Source: Dictyostelium discoideum (Eukaryota). Taken from it: a DNA stretch of 64,000 nucleotides. A program made the position numbers and the translations under genes. Below the pieces are notes generated by a model, which was not told the origin of the DNA, did no database searches, and saw nothing but the letters and a program-made list of their open reading frames with translations. The DNA is taken from positions 4,512,001 through 4,576,000 of the forward strand of contig CM000153.2 in assembly GCA_000004695.1 (NCBI GenBank). The letters are read 5' to 3'. Shown here piece after piece: positions 1,273 to 7,368 of the stretch (its first letter is position 1; each line of letters starts with the position of its first letter).

Positions 1273-1568
1273 TTAAGAAGATTTTACTTGAATTGGATTA
1301 ATTTGGGAATATAATAAATTTGAAGCGTCAATACCTTTTAAAAATTCGACTATTTTTAGAGCAAATGGAATAGTGACACCAGCTGAAGAAGCAGTGATAA
1401 TATTTCCATCAACCACTATTGTCTGATCTAATAATTCAATTGAATCTTGCATAAATTGATTACAACCTGGAAAATGAGTTACTTTTCTACCTTTTAATAA
1501 ACCACATTTACCAAAAATTTGTGGTGCTGCACAAATTGCTGCTAAAAATCTGTTATTATTATTTTCAA

Positions 1569-1638
<70 letters not shown>

Positions 1639-1947
1639 TATTTCATTTGAATATAATAAACCAAATCTTTTAATGGCATCAATTAATTTTTGATTTGTTA
1701 ATTGTTGAACGATTCCAGGACCACCTGGAATAATTATTCCATTATAATTTGAGAGTGTTTCAATGAAATCTTGAAATTTATATTCTGTTACTAATTCAAT
1801 ATAATGTGAACCTTTAATTGATTTCTTATCATTATCAATTGAAATTAAGTCAACTCTAATATTAGCTCTTCTTAAAAGATCAAGAGTTGTTACACATTCA
1901 ATCTCTTCGAAACCATCAAAAATTATCATTGCAACCTGAATCGCCAT
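1273..1947 (-). CDS. DJ-1/PfpI (ThiJ) family protein (class I glutamine amidotransferase-like fold); single exon, 224 aa
   Basis: A complete ATG-to-stop ORF. The N-terminus MAIQVAMIIFDGFEEIE aligns with the DJ-1 MASKRALVILAKGAEEME. The nucleophile-elbow motif AAICAAPQ matches DJ-1 AAICAGP, followed by HFPGC. A 27-residue poly-Asn insert, encoded by (ATT)n at about 1569-1640, sits inside the fold. Confidence 0.85.
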
Positions 1948-2744: not shown

Positions 2745-4077
2745 TTATAAAATTGATTGATTGAAATCTTTGAAATAAGGATGCTTCATTGCCTCCTTTG
2801 CAGTTAATCTTTCTGTTGGATCATAACGTAATAATTTATCTAAAAAGTCAATTGCATCAGGTTGCGCAATATCATCATTTTCATATGGTATAAATCTTTC
2901 CCAATTACTTTTTTGTCGTCTATATATATATATATATATATTTAATATAAAAAAAAAAAAAAAGAAAAAAAGAAAAAGTTAATAATGATAATGATAATTG
3001 AATATTATCATTATTATTATTTTAATAAATACATACGGTTTAATTAAAGAGGATTGTTCATCAGTTAAAGATAAACCAAATTTATCCAAAAAGTTAAATA
3101 AATCATCAGTACCTAAAACTTTAACAATTTTTAATAATTGATCATTATTATTATCACCATTAAAGAAAGGATCTCTATCTAAAATCAAACCAGCGAATAA
3201 ACAACCCAATGACCACATATCTAAACTATAATCATAGTCAAACATATTCACCAATAATTCGGGTGGTTTATAATGTCTAGAGGCAACTCTAACATTATAA
3301 TTCTTACCTGGATGATAATATTCCGCTAATCCCCAATCAATTAATGATAATTTCCTCTTTGAATGATCAATTGCAATATTTAATGGTTTTATATCTCTAT
3401 GTATTATACCTTTTGAATGTGTGTAATCAATTGCCTAATAATAAAAAATAAAAATAATAATAATTAATAACCACCAATATAAATATAAATTATTTAATAA
3501 TAATAAAATTAATGATAATACTTACTTTTAATAATTCAAAAATATAATATCTAATATCATAATCATCCAATGTATAAACTAATTCTCTAATGTCAGTTTT
3601 ATTTACAAATGGGAAAACTAGACTACAAACTTTTGAAGATTGATCTTTAACTGAATCCAATAGTGGTATAATGTTTGGACCACCATTTAAACTCTCCAAT
3701 ATTTTAATTTCTCTTTGAATCTTTAATTTTTGAACTGGTTTCAAAACTTTGATTACAACTTCATCAGAGGTCTCTATATCGATACCACTAAAAACTTCAC
3801 TATATTTACCACGACCAATCTTTTGAATCACTTCATATCTATCTACATTCTTCCAATTGATACGATAACCTTCATAATCGTAATATGATTTTGGTTGATT
3901 TTCATTAACATCTCTATAAACTTTTGAAATATTTCTTAAAATTCTACCTTCCATCATATCTTCTTCAATAATTAAACCATTACCATTTTGTTGTTGTTGT
4001 TGTAACTGTTGTTGTTGTTGTAATTCTAATTGTTTTTTCTTTTCAGTTTCTTCTTGTTCTTTTCTTTGTTTTTCAAG

Positions 4078-4140
<63 letters not shown>

Positions 4141-4524
4141 TAGTAATTGCTGTTGTTGTTGTTGTAATTGTTGTTGTTGTTGAATTTGTTGTTTATTTAA
4201 AGAATGTGAAGGATTTGCATTCATAAATTCATTGATATCCTTTTCGATATCGGTTAGAGCTTGTGAACCACTTCCCATACTACCACCTAATCCACTACTA
4301 ACTGATTGGTGTAACTCTGATGTATCATATGATGAGGATTGAGTATGATGTCTTTTATTACATTTTGTGCAATCATCATTATCACTGCTATTTTTATTAT
4401 TAGATTTACCTCTTCGATTTCTAAAGTTACTATGGTGATGATGTTGTTTATTTTTAATATTACTTTTATTATCGCTATTATTATTGCTACTATTATTATT
4501 ACAATTTTCAGTTAATTTTGAATC

Positions 4525-4605
<81 letters not shown>

Positions 4606-4770
4606 TGAAGAATTTGAGGATAGTGATCCTCCCATATATAAATATCCAATTATTGGTGCGAATAAACATGGACTTGAATAGGGTGAGTATGGATTTATAT
4701 ACCCACATGATATAACATATAAAATACAAAGTAAATAAAGTAAAAAGAAAATTTGGTAATATTTCCCCAT
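2745..4770 (-). CDS. Casein kinase II alpha-like Ser/Thr protein kinase, 3 exons, with a long low-complexity N-terminal extension
   Basis: Exons on the minus strand are approx 4770..3526, 3434..3037 and 2919..2745. The donors are GTAAGT (AAA|gtaagt) and GTATGT (CC|gtatgt), the acceptors are tattag| and tatatag|, and the phases are consistent (1245+398+175 nt = 605 aa). The kinase domain matches CK2-alpha closely: [89 protein letters not shown] and the C-terminal [24 protein letters not shown]. About 290 residues precede the domain: a hydrophobic signal-like segment ([23 protein letters not shown]), poly-N, HHHH and poly-Q. Confidence 0.85.
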
Positions 4771-4795
4771 TATTTAAATTATACAATCTTTTTTA

Positions 4796-4935
<140 letters not shown>

Positions 4936-6405
4936 TTTTTGTTGTTGTTGTTGTTGTTTAAATGTATACTACTAATAAAATTTTTTTTTTTTTTTTTTAA
5001 TTCTTTTTAATTGAAACTATTATGAGAAATTTTAATAAAAAAAAAAAATTTCGTTGATAAATAATAAAATACTATTATTACTATTACTATTTCTATTATT
5101 TATTTATAATTAAATATTATTATTATTATTATTATTACAATTATTATTATTATTATTTTATTTTTATTTTAATTTTATTTTAATTTTATTTTAATTTTTT
5201 ATTTTTATTTTATTTTTATTTGGTATTTATTATAAAACTGTTATTATATCTGTTATCTAAAAATACAAATATTGGTATTAATATTAAATTTTTTTTTTTT
5301 TTTTTTTATGGTTTGTGTGTTTTATTAATATTAAGTTTTTTTTTTTTTTTTTATGGTTTGTGTGTTTTATTTTCTTTTAAAAAAGATCCTTTTTTTTTAA
5401 AAAAAAAAAAAAAAAAAATCAAATACAAAATATATTTATATATACACTTCATATTTATTATAGCAAATATTATTTAAAATAAAAAATATAAAAAAATATA
5501 AAAAAAGTTTATTCTTTTATACTTACAATATAATAATTGAGATATAAATTATATCAAATTTTTTGTATTTTAAATGTTTTTGAAGAGTGTTTTCAACAAC
5601 TAATTTTTTGAAAAAAAAAATAAAAAAAAAAAAATAAAAATAAAAATAAAAAAAAAAAATATAAAAAAAATAAAAAAATAAAAAAAAAAAAAGAAATTTC
5701 GTTTTGCCAACAATTGAAAACTTTTTAGATATTTATAACGACAAAATGTCCCATTAGACCCCATTTTTTTTTAATTAATTTTTTTATTTTTTTTTTTTTT
5801 TTATTGTAATGGATAAAAAAAAAAAAAAAAAAAAAAAAAAGATATTTGTAAATTTTTTTTTTTTTAATAGGAAAGATGTTGTGTTTATTTAAATATTTAA
5901 TAATTTTTTTAACTATTAATAAAGTTTAAAGAAATCATCACTTTTTTTTATTTTTTTTTATTTTTTTTTTTTTATTGTTTTTATTATTATATTTTTTTTA
6001 TTATTTTTATTTTAGTTTTTATTTTTTTTATTGATTAGTTCCCCCACCCAATATTTGGATTTTTTTTTTTTTTTTTTTCTTTAAAAAAAAAAAAAAAACT
6101 TTAATTTTGAAAAATTATTTTTTTTGGAAATTCCTAAAGAAACCCTTGTAAATTTTTTTATTTTTTTTTTTTTTTTTTTTTATTTTTTTTTATTTTTTGA
6201 ATATCCTAGTTTTTTTTTTTGTTTTGTTTTATAAATTTAATAAAAGGGTTAATTTTTGTATATTTAATAGAAATGAAATACAAATTTCATATGCAATTTT
6301 TTTTTTTTTAAAATTTTTTTTTTTTTTTTTATTTTTTTTTATATTTTTCTTTTTTATTTTTTTTTTTTTTTATTTTTTTATTTTCCCAACCTACGACAAA
6401 CGATT

Positions 6406-7368
6406 GTGGAAAAAAAAAAAAAAAAAAAAATGAATCATTTAAATAAATTATCAAAATCAAGTGGTTTATTAAATCATAATAGATCATTATTTTCATCATC
6501 AAATATTAGACAAATCTTATATACCAACAACAACAACAATAATAATAATAATAATAATAATAAAAATTCAATCAACATTAATACAACATTATTCAACAAT
6601 GTTTTAAATAATCAAAAACAATTAATTAGAGGATTTATTAAAAATAGAAGAATTAAGCAATCTTTTTTTGCACAATCAACAGGACAAATCTTTAATCAAG
6701 ATGTTTTACCAGGTTTTTTAACAATTTTAAGCTCACCATTAAAATGGTTCGAATATGCTAAATTCATTTATAGAAATATTACTTCAAATGCTTTAATTAA
6801 ATCAAAATTAAAAAATTTAGATAAAATTCATTATTCAAAAAAAAAGTAATCATTATTATTATATAAATTTATTATTATTTTGTGATTATTAATTCTGATT
6901 TTATTTTTATTTTTATTTTTTATTTTTTTTTGAAAAAAAACCAGATTTTTAGCAGAAGCAGAAGAAATGTTTAATGAATTAGGCAAAGCAGTTGCAGAAG
7001 GTAATAAAAATGATATTAATGATATTTCAACAATTCAATTCTCATCAGTAGTTTTTAAAAATACAGGTATTAATGATACAAATATTAAAAACTATAAAAC
7101 TGAATGGAATGGTAAAATAAATTCAAAAAAGATGATATGGTCAAGAGCTGGTCAAATTAAACTCACACATTCTGAAACAAGCTTTTTCGCTCAAAATTGT
7201 GTTGAATTCACTGGTACTCAATCAATCATTGTAAAGGATAAAAATGATAAAGTAATCTCTTCAATTGAAGATCAACCATTTAAATCTGAATATGTTTTTG
7301 AACGTAATGTTTCTTCTTTACCATCACAATGGAGAATTGCAAGTTCAACTGAATTCCCAATTAAATAA
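6406..7368 (+). CDS. Tim44-like domain protein (mitochondrial ribosomal protein L45 / Mba1-like), probable 2 exons
   Basis: Exon 1 is 6406..6845. Its N-terminus MNHLNKLSKSSGLLNHNRSLFSSSNIRQ looks like a mitochondrial presequence. The donor GTAATC lies at 6846-6847. An acceptor ccag| at 6943-6944 gives exon 2 as 6945..7368 in phase, with no stop across the junction. The exon-2 peptide (...SIIVKDKNDKVISSIEDQPFKSEYVFERNVSSLPSQWRIAS) fits the Tim44-like C-terminal pattern (...vWtFeR...WRl). The acceptor is unconventional because an A-run precedes it, and the family assignment comes from memory of the fold motif. Confidence 0.5.

Follow-up and report, generated by a model that had tools for sequence, protein, structure and literature searches.

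By sequence identity, the region described here is exon 1 of DDB0219953, the second CK2-family kinase of Dictyostelium discoideum beside casK. The most likely reading of the full protein is a CK2 enzyme that is tethered to a membrane and faces the cytosol, and we consider this reading probable. What is new, on the evidence of sequence profiles, is a conserved, charge-free N-terminal module of approximately 50 residues, which is restricted to this kinase clade and likely serves as a membrane or secretory targeting element. The data establish the gene model, the coding nature and conservation of the extension, the confinement of the module to the clade and the integrity of the catalytic residues; we infer membrane insertion, topology, activity and specificity. 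The gene and its extension were already catalogued, because the sequence matches DDB0219953 of 2006; since both have been public from that year on, the discovery about the window (the whole stretch of 64,000 nucleotides analysed) is modest.

Gene structure and identity

The gene lies on the minus strand and comprises three exons, which encode a product of 605 amino acids. For this strand the coordinates 4770..3526 are correct for exon 1, and the original prediction of a CK2-alpha catalytic domain with a long N-terminal extension at 3526-4770 is confirmed. The exon had also been described as open for 415 codons up to the ELLK/AIDY intron, and a frame from the ATG to K415 followed by a GTAAGT donor was indeed found. 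The features of the gene, in window positions, are:

3526..4770, minus strand: exon 1, 415 codons, from the ATG (4770-4768) to K415 (AAA, 3528-3526)
4702..4770, minus strand: residues 1-23, hydrophobic segment 1, a putative signal peptide or signal anchor by hydrophobicity, AlphaFold2 and conservation
4618..4668, minus strand: residues 35-51, hydrophobic segment 2, the D. discoideum version of the clade motif YLFALPPIIGYIGGIAVR
4528..4605, minus strand: poly-Asn, residues 56-81 (26 N), an (AAT)n repeat
4360..4443, minus strand: His cluster H110-113 and C-x-x-C (C134-C137), within a basic, S/N-rich stretch
4195..4311, minus strand: conserved block, residues 154-192, which holds the CK2-consensus site T173-D-I-E
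3985..4194, minus strand: Q-rich charged helical linker, residues 193-262, a (CAA)n repeat
3526..3945, minus strand: CK2-alpha homology of exon 1, residues 276-415, with the N-terminal clamp segment, the Gly loop GRGKYSEV, K341, a reduced basic cluster and the hinge
3435..3525, minus strand: intron 1, 91 nt, GTAAGT donor at 3525, AG end at 3435, 8.8% GC
3037..3434, minus strand: exon 2, which opens with GCA ATT GAT TAC (AIDY) and encodes the catalytic loop and the activation and p+1 loops
2920..3036, minus strand: intron 2, 117 nt, GTATGT..AG; the P. violaceum gene has a similarly placed intron
2745..2919, minus strand: exon 3, stop codon TAA at 2747-2745

The poly-N, His-cluster, S/N-rich and poly-Q features read earlier from the DNA are all present ahead of the kinase N-lobe, and the Q-rich tract contains 41 Q within residues 200-270 with a longest uninterrupted run of 20. 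Two lengths need correction. The extension is long, but at about 265-275 residues falls short of the 290 proposed, because homology to canonical CK2-alpha, with the RILRN of casK, begins at R276. Canonical CK2-alpha, in turn, starts 45-53 residues ahead of GRGKYSEVF rather than about 35.

In the kinome analysis of Goldberg et al. 2006 (PMC1420674), DDB0219953 is classified as CMGC/CK2 (Table S2), its kinase domain is placed at residue 312 (Fig. S1), and the CK2 kinases of Dictyostelium number two (Table S3). The gene model matches the stored DDB0219953 sequence throughout; this sequence comprises about 400 residues, starts at Met1 and ends within the kinase domain (PMC1420674). By our tally from the text of the same paper, 17 kinases have strongly predicted transmembrane domains, and DDB0219953 is apparently not among them (PMC1420674). 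A literature search on DDB0219953 yielded no study of the gene or its extension, and an exact-sequence look-up with the 605-residue product and the 426-residue unspliced exon-1 ORF returned no match. Presumably, the gene ID is DDB_G0286481, on which we do not rely; no paper was found under it.

Translation of the N-terminal extension

The extension is almost certainly coding, with translation from the ATG at 4770. An open frame of 800 nt had been judged very unlikely to be non-coding, and the statistics agree: given the base composition, a stop-free run of 290 codons has a probability of about 1e-12, 0 of 20,000 shuffles left the frame open, and the open run 3493..4773 is the 8th longest of 9,609 in the window, where the median run spans 6 codons. 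A stop codon is located one codon 5' of the ATG. The GC content of the extension is coding-like at 25.2%, compared to 20.3% for the whole window, 8.5-8.8% for the introns and 10% for the upstream intergenic DNA.

AAT and CAA trinucleotide repeats inflate open frames, and therefore, the evidence from conservation outweighs that from ORF length. In comparison with D. citrinum, dN/dS amounts to 0.09 for residues 1-55, 0.22 for the whole extension and 0.08 for the kinase N-lobe, and all indels are in frame, with a poly-Asn tract that differs in length and composition in that species. Values of 0.09-0.25 and the conserved protein argue for a coding frame. The repeats alone might nevertheless keep frames open, and just 12 stops occur in frame 2 of the extension, as expected if the true start were M272/M273 (MMEGR) and positions 3950-4770 were 5' UTR or upstream DNA. 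Against this stands the conservation of the non-repeat parts as protein across the sampled dictyostelid genera. Moreover, Met272/273, the internal start offered as the second alternative of the original prediction, is present only in D. discoideum and D. citrinum and missing from 8 of 10 relatives, which leaves that alternative without a conserved initiation site.

Transcripts point in the same direction. A relative of 596 amino acids, Polysphondylium-like, is represented by a single unbroken ORF in four JGI transcript contigs from four samples. These contigs include the entire extension and lack two introns that are present in the P. violaceum genome, so they are spliced; their 5' UTR carries in-frame stops, and the ATG is the first in-frame start. 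We regard an untranslated extension as very improbable and already close to refuted. Just as hard to sustain is a gene-model fusion, in which two genes, one for a small membrane protein and, downstream of it, one for CK2, would lie in frame by chance. While low-complexity, poorly conserved sequence does join two conserved ends, the ORF is single and unbroken in D. discoideum, D. citrinum and D. purpureum, both parts occur on single transcripts in the Polysphondylium-like relative, and a search of 1.84 billion representative proteins turned up no case of the N-terminal module lacking the kinase. In terms of annotation, the D. discoideum gene model is right to include the long N-terminus.

A dictyostelid CK2 paralogue

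The kinase and nine dictyostelid relatives form a clade of their own, apart from casK and every other CK2-alpha, with identities of 59.6% to casK and 56.3% to human CK2-alpha. The paralogue persists in all the genera sampled, namely Dictyostelium, Polysphondylium, Tieghemostelium, Cavenderia and Acytostelium. All nine relatives conserve the N-terminus, including the region of the first Met; the same N-terminal module is found in D. citrinum, Polysphondylium violaceum, Tieghemostelium lacteum, Cavenderia fasciculata and three further sequences, and the relative from Acytostelium subglobosum keeps segment 1 only. In D. purpureum the genomic ORF reaches upstream of the 395-residue model to MGNSEFLILLYSVAIIFAITFGYVNPYSPYSGSALFAPLIYYIGGYAVR, which makes this model short by 146 codons.

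The separate clade, the conserved N-terminus, purifying selection and the spliced transcripts of the relative support the first alternative of the original prediction, namely that the gene encodes a second CK2-alpha paralogue of non-canonical type, with an N-terminus of its own. The N-terminus is separate as claimed, but the protein itself cannot be called novel, since a sequence that matches it over the approximately 400 stored residues was published as DDB0219953 in 2006. Midpoint rooting puts the clade outside all CK2-alpha sequences; we read this position as a long-branch effect in a fast-evolving paralogue and not as a sign of an ancient duplication before the eukaryote radiation.

The kinase domain

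Pfam Pkinase covers residues 312-597 (E = 2.8e-58), and the top 60 PDB matches are all CK2-alpha, the best being the maize enzyme with 318 residues aligned without gaps (443 bits). All ten clade members keep G46, G48, S51, K68, E81, H154, D156, K158, N161, D175, W176, G177 and E201 (human numbering, used hereafter for the kinase domain), and all ten carry DWG instead of DFG. With its catalytic residues intact and its domain complete, the enzyme is predicted to be catalytically competent. The constitutive activity of CK2 is based on an N-terminal segment that clamps the activation loop; six residues of this clamp are conserved (Y12, N16, P20, Y23, Y26 and E27), and Tyr takes the place of W24.

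Acidic substrates of CK2 are read by the basic cluster K74-K83 together with the basic residues of the p+1 loop. The clade retains K75, K77, R80, K83, R195 and K198, has R191 as R or K, and has throughout lost K74 (to Q), K76 (to L/F) and K79 (to Q). Judging from these positions, an acidophilic specificity is probably kept, and it may be altered.

The dual use of ATP and GTP and the sensitivity to TBB-type inhibitors go along with a small nucleotide pocket in CK2 (V66, M163, I174). The clade departs from the canonical pocket, with M163 replaced by Ala in 10 of 10 members and I174 by Leu in 8 of 10, the Ile being kept in D. discoideum itself. In addition, E114 is Pro in all ten and N118 is Lys in nine. 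The loss of lysines within K74-K79 and the pocket changes (E114P, M163A, N118K, I174L) suggest that the behaviour towards substrates, regulators and inhibitors is altered with respect to casK. The residues of the N-lobe that contact CK2-beta in the alpha2-beta2 holoenzyme (PDB 1JWH), namely Y39, F54, I/V67, I/V69, V101 and Q36, are kept except for the last, which is V or P.

The N-terminal module and the linker

The charge-free module consists of a hydrophobic helix (residues ~4-23), a Tyr/Pro loop and the Pro/Gly-containing motif YLFALPPIIGYIGGIAVR (35-51). An exhaustive profile search of the representative protein set retrieved it only from this kinase clade (E = 1e-22 to 1e-25). A word-index search with the N-terminal profile gave 0 matches, but this negative carries no information, as known positives that score 80-103 bits locally were overlooked as well. 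Four weak profile matches (P0121-P0124) are LRR or other repeat proteins with 'ALPPEIG'-like repeats and were treated as chance.

Segment 1 is conserved in all relatives and has a translocon-scale dG of -2.8 kcal/mol, a Kyte-Doolittle value of 2.56 and an octanol-scale value of -15, and passes on both the translocon and the octanol scale. AlphaFold2 predicts a helix at residues 2-21 (pLDDT 83-92) in two relatives, i.e., in the models of the D. citrinum (P0001, 609 aa) and T. lacteum proteins, which stand in for the window protein. The 23 residues follow the layout of a signal peptide: an n-region MGKYYQ, an h-region of 14 residues and a c-region S-C-G before Y24, with Gly at position -1 in all relatives, S/A/T at -3 in 8 of 9 and then an invariant Tyr. 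In length and hydrophobicity they would equally suit an uncleaved anchor. The earlier description of the N-terminus as signal-peptide-like is fair for residues 1-23, which with the tools used look the same as an uncleaved membrane anchor. We rejected N-myristoylation of the Met-Gly start, as K3 (or Q at +5) breaks the PROSITE-type consensus.

Segment 2 is the best-conserved element of the extension, and its hydrophobicity is marginal: at +4 kcal/mol it fails on the translocon (Hessa) scale, and at -4.5 to -7 it passes on the octanol scale. The loop between the two segments measures 9-16 residues and carries zero charge in all relatives; most of them have an Arg after segment 2, and the charge of the N-flank ranges from neutral to positive. 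This second conserved hydrophobic motif had not been singled out before, and thus the likely topology changes. A Pfam PFF1_TM match at residues 37-148 (17.1 bits against a cut-off of 32.3) was dismissed as low-complexity noise.

The linker between module and kinase is long, mostly disordered and fast-evolving, and its blocks occur in the order poly-N, His-rich with CxxC, SSGxGG / [ST][DE]xE / DINEF and Q-rich helix. A His-rich region with CxxC is present at the matching place in 7 of 10 relatives. Within the block 154-192, S156, S159, G160, G162 and F182 are nearly invariant, and the [ST][DE]xE motif occurs in 8 of 10 relatives. For the D. citrinum relative, AlphaFold2 gives no usable model of residues ~32-213 and a long helix for the Q-rich part (pLDDT >90), the sequence of which is unconserved beyond group 4.

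Proposed membrane topology

For a tethered, cytosol-facing enzyme, segment 1 would be recognised by the ER targeting machinery, either as a signal sequence or as a signal anchor, and segment 2, followed by the conserved Arg and the basic or His-rich sequence, would bring the chain back to the cytosolic side. Segment 2 might form the other arm of a hairpin, or it might serve as a stop-transfer sequence after signal cleavage. The outcome would be a constitutively active CK2-type kinase on a flexible tether, held to the cytosolic side of the plasma membrane or an endomembrane, i.e., a tethered pool instead of a free nucleocytoplasmic enzyme. We lean towards the kinase facing the cytosol; because segment 2 is a low-confidence coil in both AlphaFold2 runs, we only infer the second membrane passage and hence this orientation.

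The opposite orientation would arise if residues 1-23 were a cleaved signal peptide or an uncleaved type II anchor and segment 2 did not span, such that the extension and the CK2 domain would enter the ER lumen, with the secretory pathway, the cell surface or the medium as the place of action. The textbook signal-peptide layout with its conserved small -3/-1 pair (S/A/T, G) before the invariant Tyr accords with this arrangement, and so does the charge balance of segment 1, which favours N-in, C-out. Segment 2, at +4 kcal/mol on the translocon scale and non-helical in AlphaFold2, could well remain outside the bilayer. Three lysines of K74-K79, which in canonical CK2-alpha contribute to nuclear import and to regulation by CK2-beta and heparin, are lost. 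Reports from other organisms also describe externally oriented and secreted CK2 activities that have no dedicated gene of their own. However, characterised CK2-alpha enzymes are all cytosolic, nuclear or plastidic, and segment 2 resembles a membrane-embedded hairpin arm in that it comprises 17 residues without a polar residue, preceded by an invariably short, uncharged loop and followed by a conserved Arg. Furthermore, the kinase domain shows neither conserved cysteine pairs nor clade-specific sequons, and the positions of its N-lobe that meet CK2-beta in canonical CK2 are kept. Taken together, we deem export of the kinase domain rather unlikely.

A dedicated dictyostelid CK2-alpha that enters the secretory pathway through its leader, to work either in the ER/Golgi lumen or, once exported, at the surface of the cell or in the medium, is rather unlikely. 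Such a genetically encoded 'ecto-CK2' would possibly have secreted or matrix proteins as substrates while cells aggregate and form fruiting bodies. We know of no described CK2-alpha gene with a secretory leader. As for the membrane-tethered, cytosol-facing CK2 that we prefer, no description of it across dictyostelids was found in the searchable literature.

The hydrophobic N-terminus might also be translated but play no membrane role, e.g., as a degradation or aggregation signal, or form a monotopic hairpin in lipid droplets. The approximately 50 charge-free residues, with two arms around a Pro/Tyr-rich turn, appear to resemble monotopic hairpins, and segment 2 is just marginally hydrophobic. 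Segment 1, on the other hand, equals bona fide transmembrane helices in hydrophobicity, and no feature found here separates a monotopic from a bitopic hairpin. This explanation appears improbable, and its lipid-droplet form would still be a cytosol-facing tether and is thus a variant of the preferred one.

Significance

CK2 is usually seen as a soluble, constitutively active and pleiotropic kinase, which is controlled mainly through its localisation and partners. The private hydrophobic leader, the altered basic cluster and the altered nucleotide pocket together make this paralogue a natural experiment in localisation-based CK2 control, in an organism that is readily manipulated by genetics. 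A cytosol-facing kinase would provide the cell with a pool of CK2 activity that is restricted to membranes. A lumenal or secreted kinase would make the gene, to our knowledge, the first dedicated one behind the long-debated ecto-CK2 activities.

Comparison with known systems

Canonical CK2-alpha enzymes are soluble and nucleocytoplasmic. The present kinase shares with them (casK/DDB0185025, human CSNK2A1, maize PDB 1DS5 and 2PVH) a gap-free catalytic alignment of 318 residues, which includes the GRGKYSEV Gly loop, K68, E81, HRD, N161, DWG, the clamp VYxDVN..P..Y.DYE and the p+1 residues R191/R195/K198 (R191 as R or K in its clade). It differs by about 275 extra N-terminal residues with the hydrophobic module, by its separate position in the tree and, besides the changes in K74-K79 and the pocket, by the clade-wide substitutions Y196H, F197Y, G199P and W24Y.

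CK2-type activity outside the cytosol, as ecto-CK2 or secreted enzyme, is reportedly found in Leishmania braziliensis (PMC4450227; review PMC4071215). Such ecto-CK2 activities are a precedent for the lumenal or secreted alternative only, and we know of no dedicated signal-peptide-bearing CK2 gene behind them. By comparison, the hydrophobic leader is encoded in the gene described here, and export of its kinase is putative.

Among the membrane-bound kinases of the Dictyostelium kinome, the GDT/DRK receptor kinases, 7TMK1/2, IreA and SLOB2, for which an N-terminal anchor is predicted, likewise use hydrophobic N-terminal elements to place an ePK domain at the membrane. These kinases belong to the TKL, IRE or 'Other' groups, and most have extracellular domains between signal peptide and transmembrane segment; the present kinase, in contrast, is of the CMGC/CK2 type and would expose an extracytoplasmic loop of at most 9-16 residues. 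The kinome paper (PMC1420674) gives no discussion of DDB0219953 as membrane-bound.

Plastid CK2 of plants (cpCK2 / CK2-alpha-4; PMC4814456, PMC2988416) is likewise a CK2-alpha that is readdressed by an N-terminal targeting extension, and the search matches include P0013, annotated as 'Casein kinase II subunit alpha-4, chloroplastic'. There, the extension is a cleaved, non-hydrophobic transit peptide that yields a soluble stromal enzyme. The Dictyostelium extension, in comparison, is far longer, starts with transmembrane-like segments, contains conserved internal motifs and is confined to Dictyostelia.

Gene structure and coding capacity of the extension

DDB0219953, the second CK2-type kinase gene of Dictyostelium discoideum, is encoded on the minus strand by a coding sequence of 1,818 nt in three exons, which yields a protein of 605 amino acids. 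The predicted 415-codon open exon at 3526-4770 is borne out on that strand and is followed directly by a GTAAGT donor:

4770-3526, minus strand: exon 1, from the ATG (4770-4768) through 415 codons to AAA (K415) at 3528-3526
3525-3435, minus strand: intron 1, 91 nt, GTAAGT donor, AG at 3435, followed by exon 2
3036-2920, minus strand: intron 2, GTATGT..AG
2747-2745, minus strand: TAA at the end of exon 3, closing the coding sequence

The translation of exon 1 contains every element that had been read from it, namely a hydrophobic start, a poly-N run (26 residues), HHHH, S/N-rich sequence and a Q-rich tract (41 Q in 71 residues, longest run 20). CK2-alpha homology starts at R276 (RILRN, corresponding to residue 11 of casK, the canonical CK2-alpha of D. 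discoideum). The N-terminal extension therefore comprises about 265-275 residues and not 290.

The view that such a frame in AT-rich DNA is unlikely to be non-coding holds. From base composition, the probability of 290 consecutive sense codons is ~1e-12, shuffling the 870 nt 20,000 times never left the frame open, and the open run holding the extension spans 427 codons and ranks 8th in length among the 9,609 runs of the window, where the median run is 6 codons. Since the extension DNA includes (AAT)n and (CAA)n trinucleotide repeats, which alone can hold frames open, GC content and the signals at the start of the run were weighted above ORF length. The extension has a coding-like GC content of 25.2%, compared with 26.9% in the kinase part of exon 1, 8.5-8.8% in the introns and 10% in the upstream intergenic DNA, and the open run begins just one codon 5' of the ATG at 4770.

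Translation from the first ATG

In a search of 5.8 billion proteins, nine dictyostelid relatives outscored all ordinary CK2-alpha sequences: D. citrinum (609 aa), D. purpureum, Polysphondylium violaceum (604), Tieghemostelium lacteum (537), Cavenderia fasciculata (644), Acytostelium subglobosum (530, partial) and three further sequences. A long N-terminal extension is present in each of them bar the D. purpureum model DICPUDRAFT_43974 (P0005, 395 aa). There the ORF runs 146 codons further upstream, to MGNSEFLILLYSVAIIFAITFGYVNPYSPYSGSALFAPLIYYIGGYAVR (L002:1361-2437, contig GL871569.1), and encodes both conserved hydrophobic segments; the model is truncated and begun at an internal Met. Compared with D. 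citrinum genomic DNA, all indels in the extension are in frame, and dN/dS amounts to 0.09 over residues 1-55 and 0.22 over the aligned extension, compared with 0.08 over the kinase N-lobe.

Transcript evidence comes from a 596-aa Polysphondylium-like relative, which forms a single uninterrupted ORF in four JGI contigs (2.0-2.1 kb), obtained from four samples. These contigs lack the introns of ~587 nt and ~74 nt of the P. violaceum genome and carry an AT-rich leader with in-frame stops 5' of the start; they are spliced transcripts that include the entire extension. The conserved extension, its dN/dS and these transcripts support a second, non-canonical CK2-alpha paralog with its own N-terminus. 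The alternative start at an internal Met (MMEGR, M272/M273) is rejected, as these Met residues are confined to D. discoideum and D. citrinum.

Gene models vary in detail among the relatives. In the Polysphondylium lineage, a small upstream exon (MAILNAFCSRI-) is spliced to the conserved MGNFYQ... start over the ~587-nt intron (L003-L006 compared with L007:2922-3622) and places two positive charges ahead of the first hydrophobic segment; D. discoideum is devoid of this exon, a stop sitting one codon before the ATG. The ELLK|AIDY intron is absent from P. violaceum, but one of its introns is placed much like intron 2 of D. discoideum. The C. fasciculata protein (P0012) harbours 49 extra residues ahead of the conserved start and, alone in the clade, a ~23-residue insertion (SFQDSKIFNDINIPTTIDNNSKET) in the kinase N-lobe, after the Gly loop and before the VIK strand. 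Each could be an artefact of annotation (an upstream ATG and a retained intron, respectively).

A private hydrophobic module and its proposed membrane topology

In the alignment, the extension is a mosaic. Residues 1 to ~55 are free of charged residues past K3. Segment 1 (residues 1-23) has a dG of -2 to -3 kcal/mol on the translocon scale and of -11 to -18 on the octanol scale, and is followed by a Tyr/Pro/Ser-rich loop of 9-16 residues. Segment 2 (residues 35-51), the best-conserved stretch of the extension, in most species reads YLFALPPIIGYIGGIAV with Arg after it. AlphaFold2 models of the D. citrinum and T. lacteum relatives depict residues 2-21 as a confident helix (pLDDT 83-92), segment 2 and most of the linker as low-confidence coil, and the kinase fold as confident; in D. 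citrinum the Q-rich/charged stretch forms a long helix.

When 1.84 billion representative proteins were searched exhaustively by HMMER with a 58-position module profile, representatives of the kinase clade alone were recovered (E = 1e-22 to 1e-25); the module is private to this clade. Four weak matches, to leucine-rich-repeat or other repeat proteins, were discarded. A word-index protein search with the same profile returned zero matches, although known relatives score 80-103 bits locally; word-index negatives for short hydrophobic queries are not to be trusted. In the partial A. subglobosum protein (P0011), segment 1 is kept and the HSSISSGIGG block is intact, while unrelated sequence takes the place of the YLFALPPIIGYIGGIAV motif. 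The gene model may be in error here, or the lineage has genuinely lost segment 2, in which case the loss would inform on how essential the segment is.

Judging by its hydrophobicity, segment 1 would serve as a signal sequence or signal anchor. Its N-terminal flank is neutral to positive; by the charge-difference rule, the N-terminus would stay in the cytosol and the following loop would cross the membrane. The two segments might form a short helical hairpin, or segment 2 might act as a stop-transfer sequence after signal cleavage. These arrangements are suggested by the loop, which is always short and uncharged, by segment 2, which is without a polar residue over 17 positions, and by the conserved Arg and the basic or His-rich sequence after it. 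Either would leave linker and kinase cytosolic and tethered to the membrane, and we lean, with moderate confidence, towards the kinase being a cytosol-facing membrane tether. Alternatively, segment 2 may fail to halt translocation, and the whole protein would then be lumenal or secreted (ecto-CK2). We consider this outcome unlikely, yet segment 2, with its two prolines and three glycines, falls short on the translocon scale for that reason and is not helical in the AlphaFold2 models. Residues 1-23 also resemble a classical cleavable signal peptide: position -1 is Gly in every species, and position -3 is Ser/Ala/Thr in 8/9.

Beyond the module, a conserved block reads HSSISSGIGG ... [ST][DE]xE ... 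(D/E)INEF ... NPxxSLN, and a His-rich region with CxxC occurs in seven of the ten species; poly-N, poly-Q and the charged linker vary freely between species. The [ST][DE]xE element fits the minimal CK2 consensus in 8/10 species (T173-D-I-E in D. discoideum), and this conserved site may point to autophosphorylation or a pseudosubstrate-type contact.

The kinase domain

Across 318 residues the kinase domain can be aligned gap-free with maize CK2-alpha, and it shares 59.6% identity with casK and 56.3% with human CK2-alpha. Neighbour-joining groups the ten proteins into a single clade, separate from the casK-type and all other CK2-alpha. All ten keep every catalytic residue, the CK2-specific DWG and the N-terminal clamp segment, as well as the p+1 loop basics R195 and K198 (human numbering), with R or K at R191. 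Clade-wide substitutions affect the basic cluster (K74Q, K76L/F, K79Q), the nucleotide pocket and hinge (E114P, N118K, M163A and I174L, with Ile at 174 in D. discoideum) and the p+1 loop (Y196H, F197Y, G199P). In CK2, the K74-K79 lysines help to recognise acidic residues that lie downstream of the target site, and play a part in heparin/CK2-beta regulation and in nuclear import, and M163 and I174 make the nucleotide pocket small. DDB0219953 is a CK2-alpha family member by sequence, catalytic motifs and published classification, but differs from the family in the residues of the nucleotide pocket and, to some extent, in the basic cluster. Given the retained catalytic residues and the altered cluster and pocket, the enzyme would be expected to be active and still acidophilic, to be regulated differently and to be less sensitive to TBB-type inhibitors.

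Genomic neighbourhood

A nearly perfect (TTA)n microsatellite (4793-4937 in plus-strand coordinates, ~49 copies, 94% matches) lies ~20 nt 5' of the start codon, in promoter or 5' UTR sequence of 10% GC, and 5276-5371 holds 2.1 copies of a 45-nt unit. The flanking genes are:

1273-1947, minus strand: DJ-1/PfpI family protein of 224 aa (Pfam E = 2.5e-30) with an internal poly-Asn insertion, downstream neighbour of the kinase
6406-6849, plus strand: divergently oriented 147-aa ORF containing a poly-N run, ~1.6 kb 5' of the kinase start codon

The kinase is also followed by a DJ-1/PfpI gene in D. purpureum and, at the same position, by a 219-aa gene in D. citrinum, so that local gene order around the CK2 paralogue looks conserved. 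No Pfam family significantly matches the 147-aa ORF, which probably belongs to the neighbouring gene; the matching position in D. citrinum holds a 289-aa gene with a faint Tim44 match.

Previous records and known systems

DDB0219953 appears in Table S2 of Goldberg et al. 2006 (CMGC group, CK2 family; motifs VVIK / HRDIKPLN / DWG), and Table S3 counts two Dictyostelium CK2 kinases (PMC1420674). The stored sequence (~400 residues, ending inside the kinase domain) agrees with our gene model throughout, which identifies the window as D. discoideum DNA, and the domain start at residue 312 in Fig. S1 is identical to the Pfam placement here (PMC1420674). The paralogue is not discussed in that paper's text, which reports strongly predicted transmembrane domains for 17 kinases; we tally these as 9 TKL, two 7TMK, IreA and 5 histidine kinases (PMC1420674). 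A literature search by identifier and casK-related work found no functional study of DDB0219953. The gene and its long N-terminus have been public as a catalogue entry for two decades, and are therefore no discovery about the window. Added here is that the dictyostelid genera sampled have conserved the extension under selection, that it opens with a private two-segment hydrophobic module, and that the D. purpureum model should be lengthened. A CK2 addressed to a membrane, or possibly exported, would be testable biology.

Ecto-CK2 and secreted CK2 activities have reportedly been found, e.g., in Leishmania; we know of no dedicated leader-bearing gene behind them. The membrane-bound Dictyostelium kinases of the kinome paper belong to other kinase groups (PMC1420674). 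The nearest precedent is the plastid CK2 of plants, a CK2-alpha that likewise gained a new address through an N-terminal extension (PMC4814456, PMC2988416). Its transit peptide is cleaved and non-hydrophobic, whereas the extension of DDB0219953 opens with a hydrophobic module.
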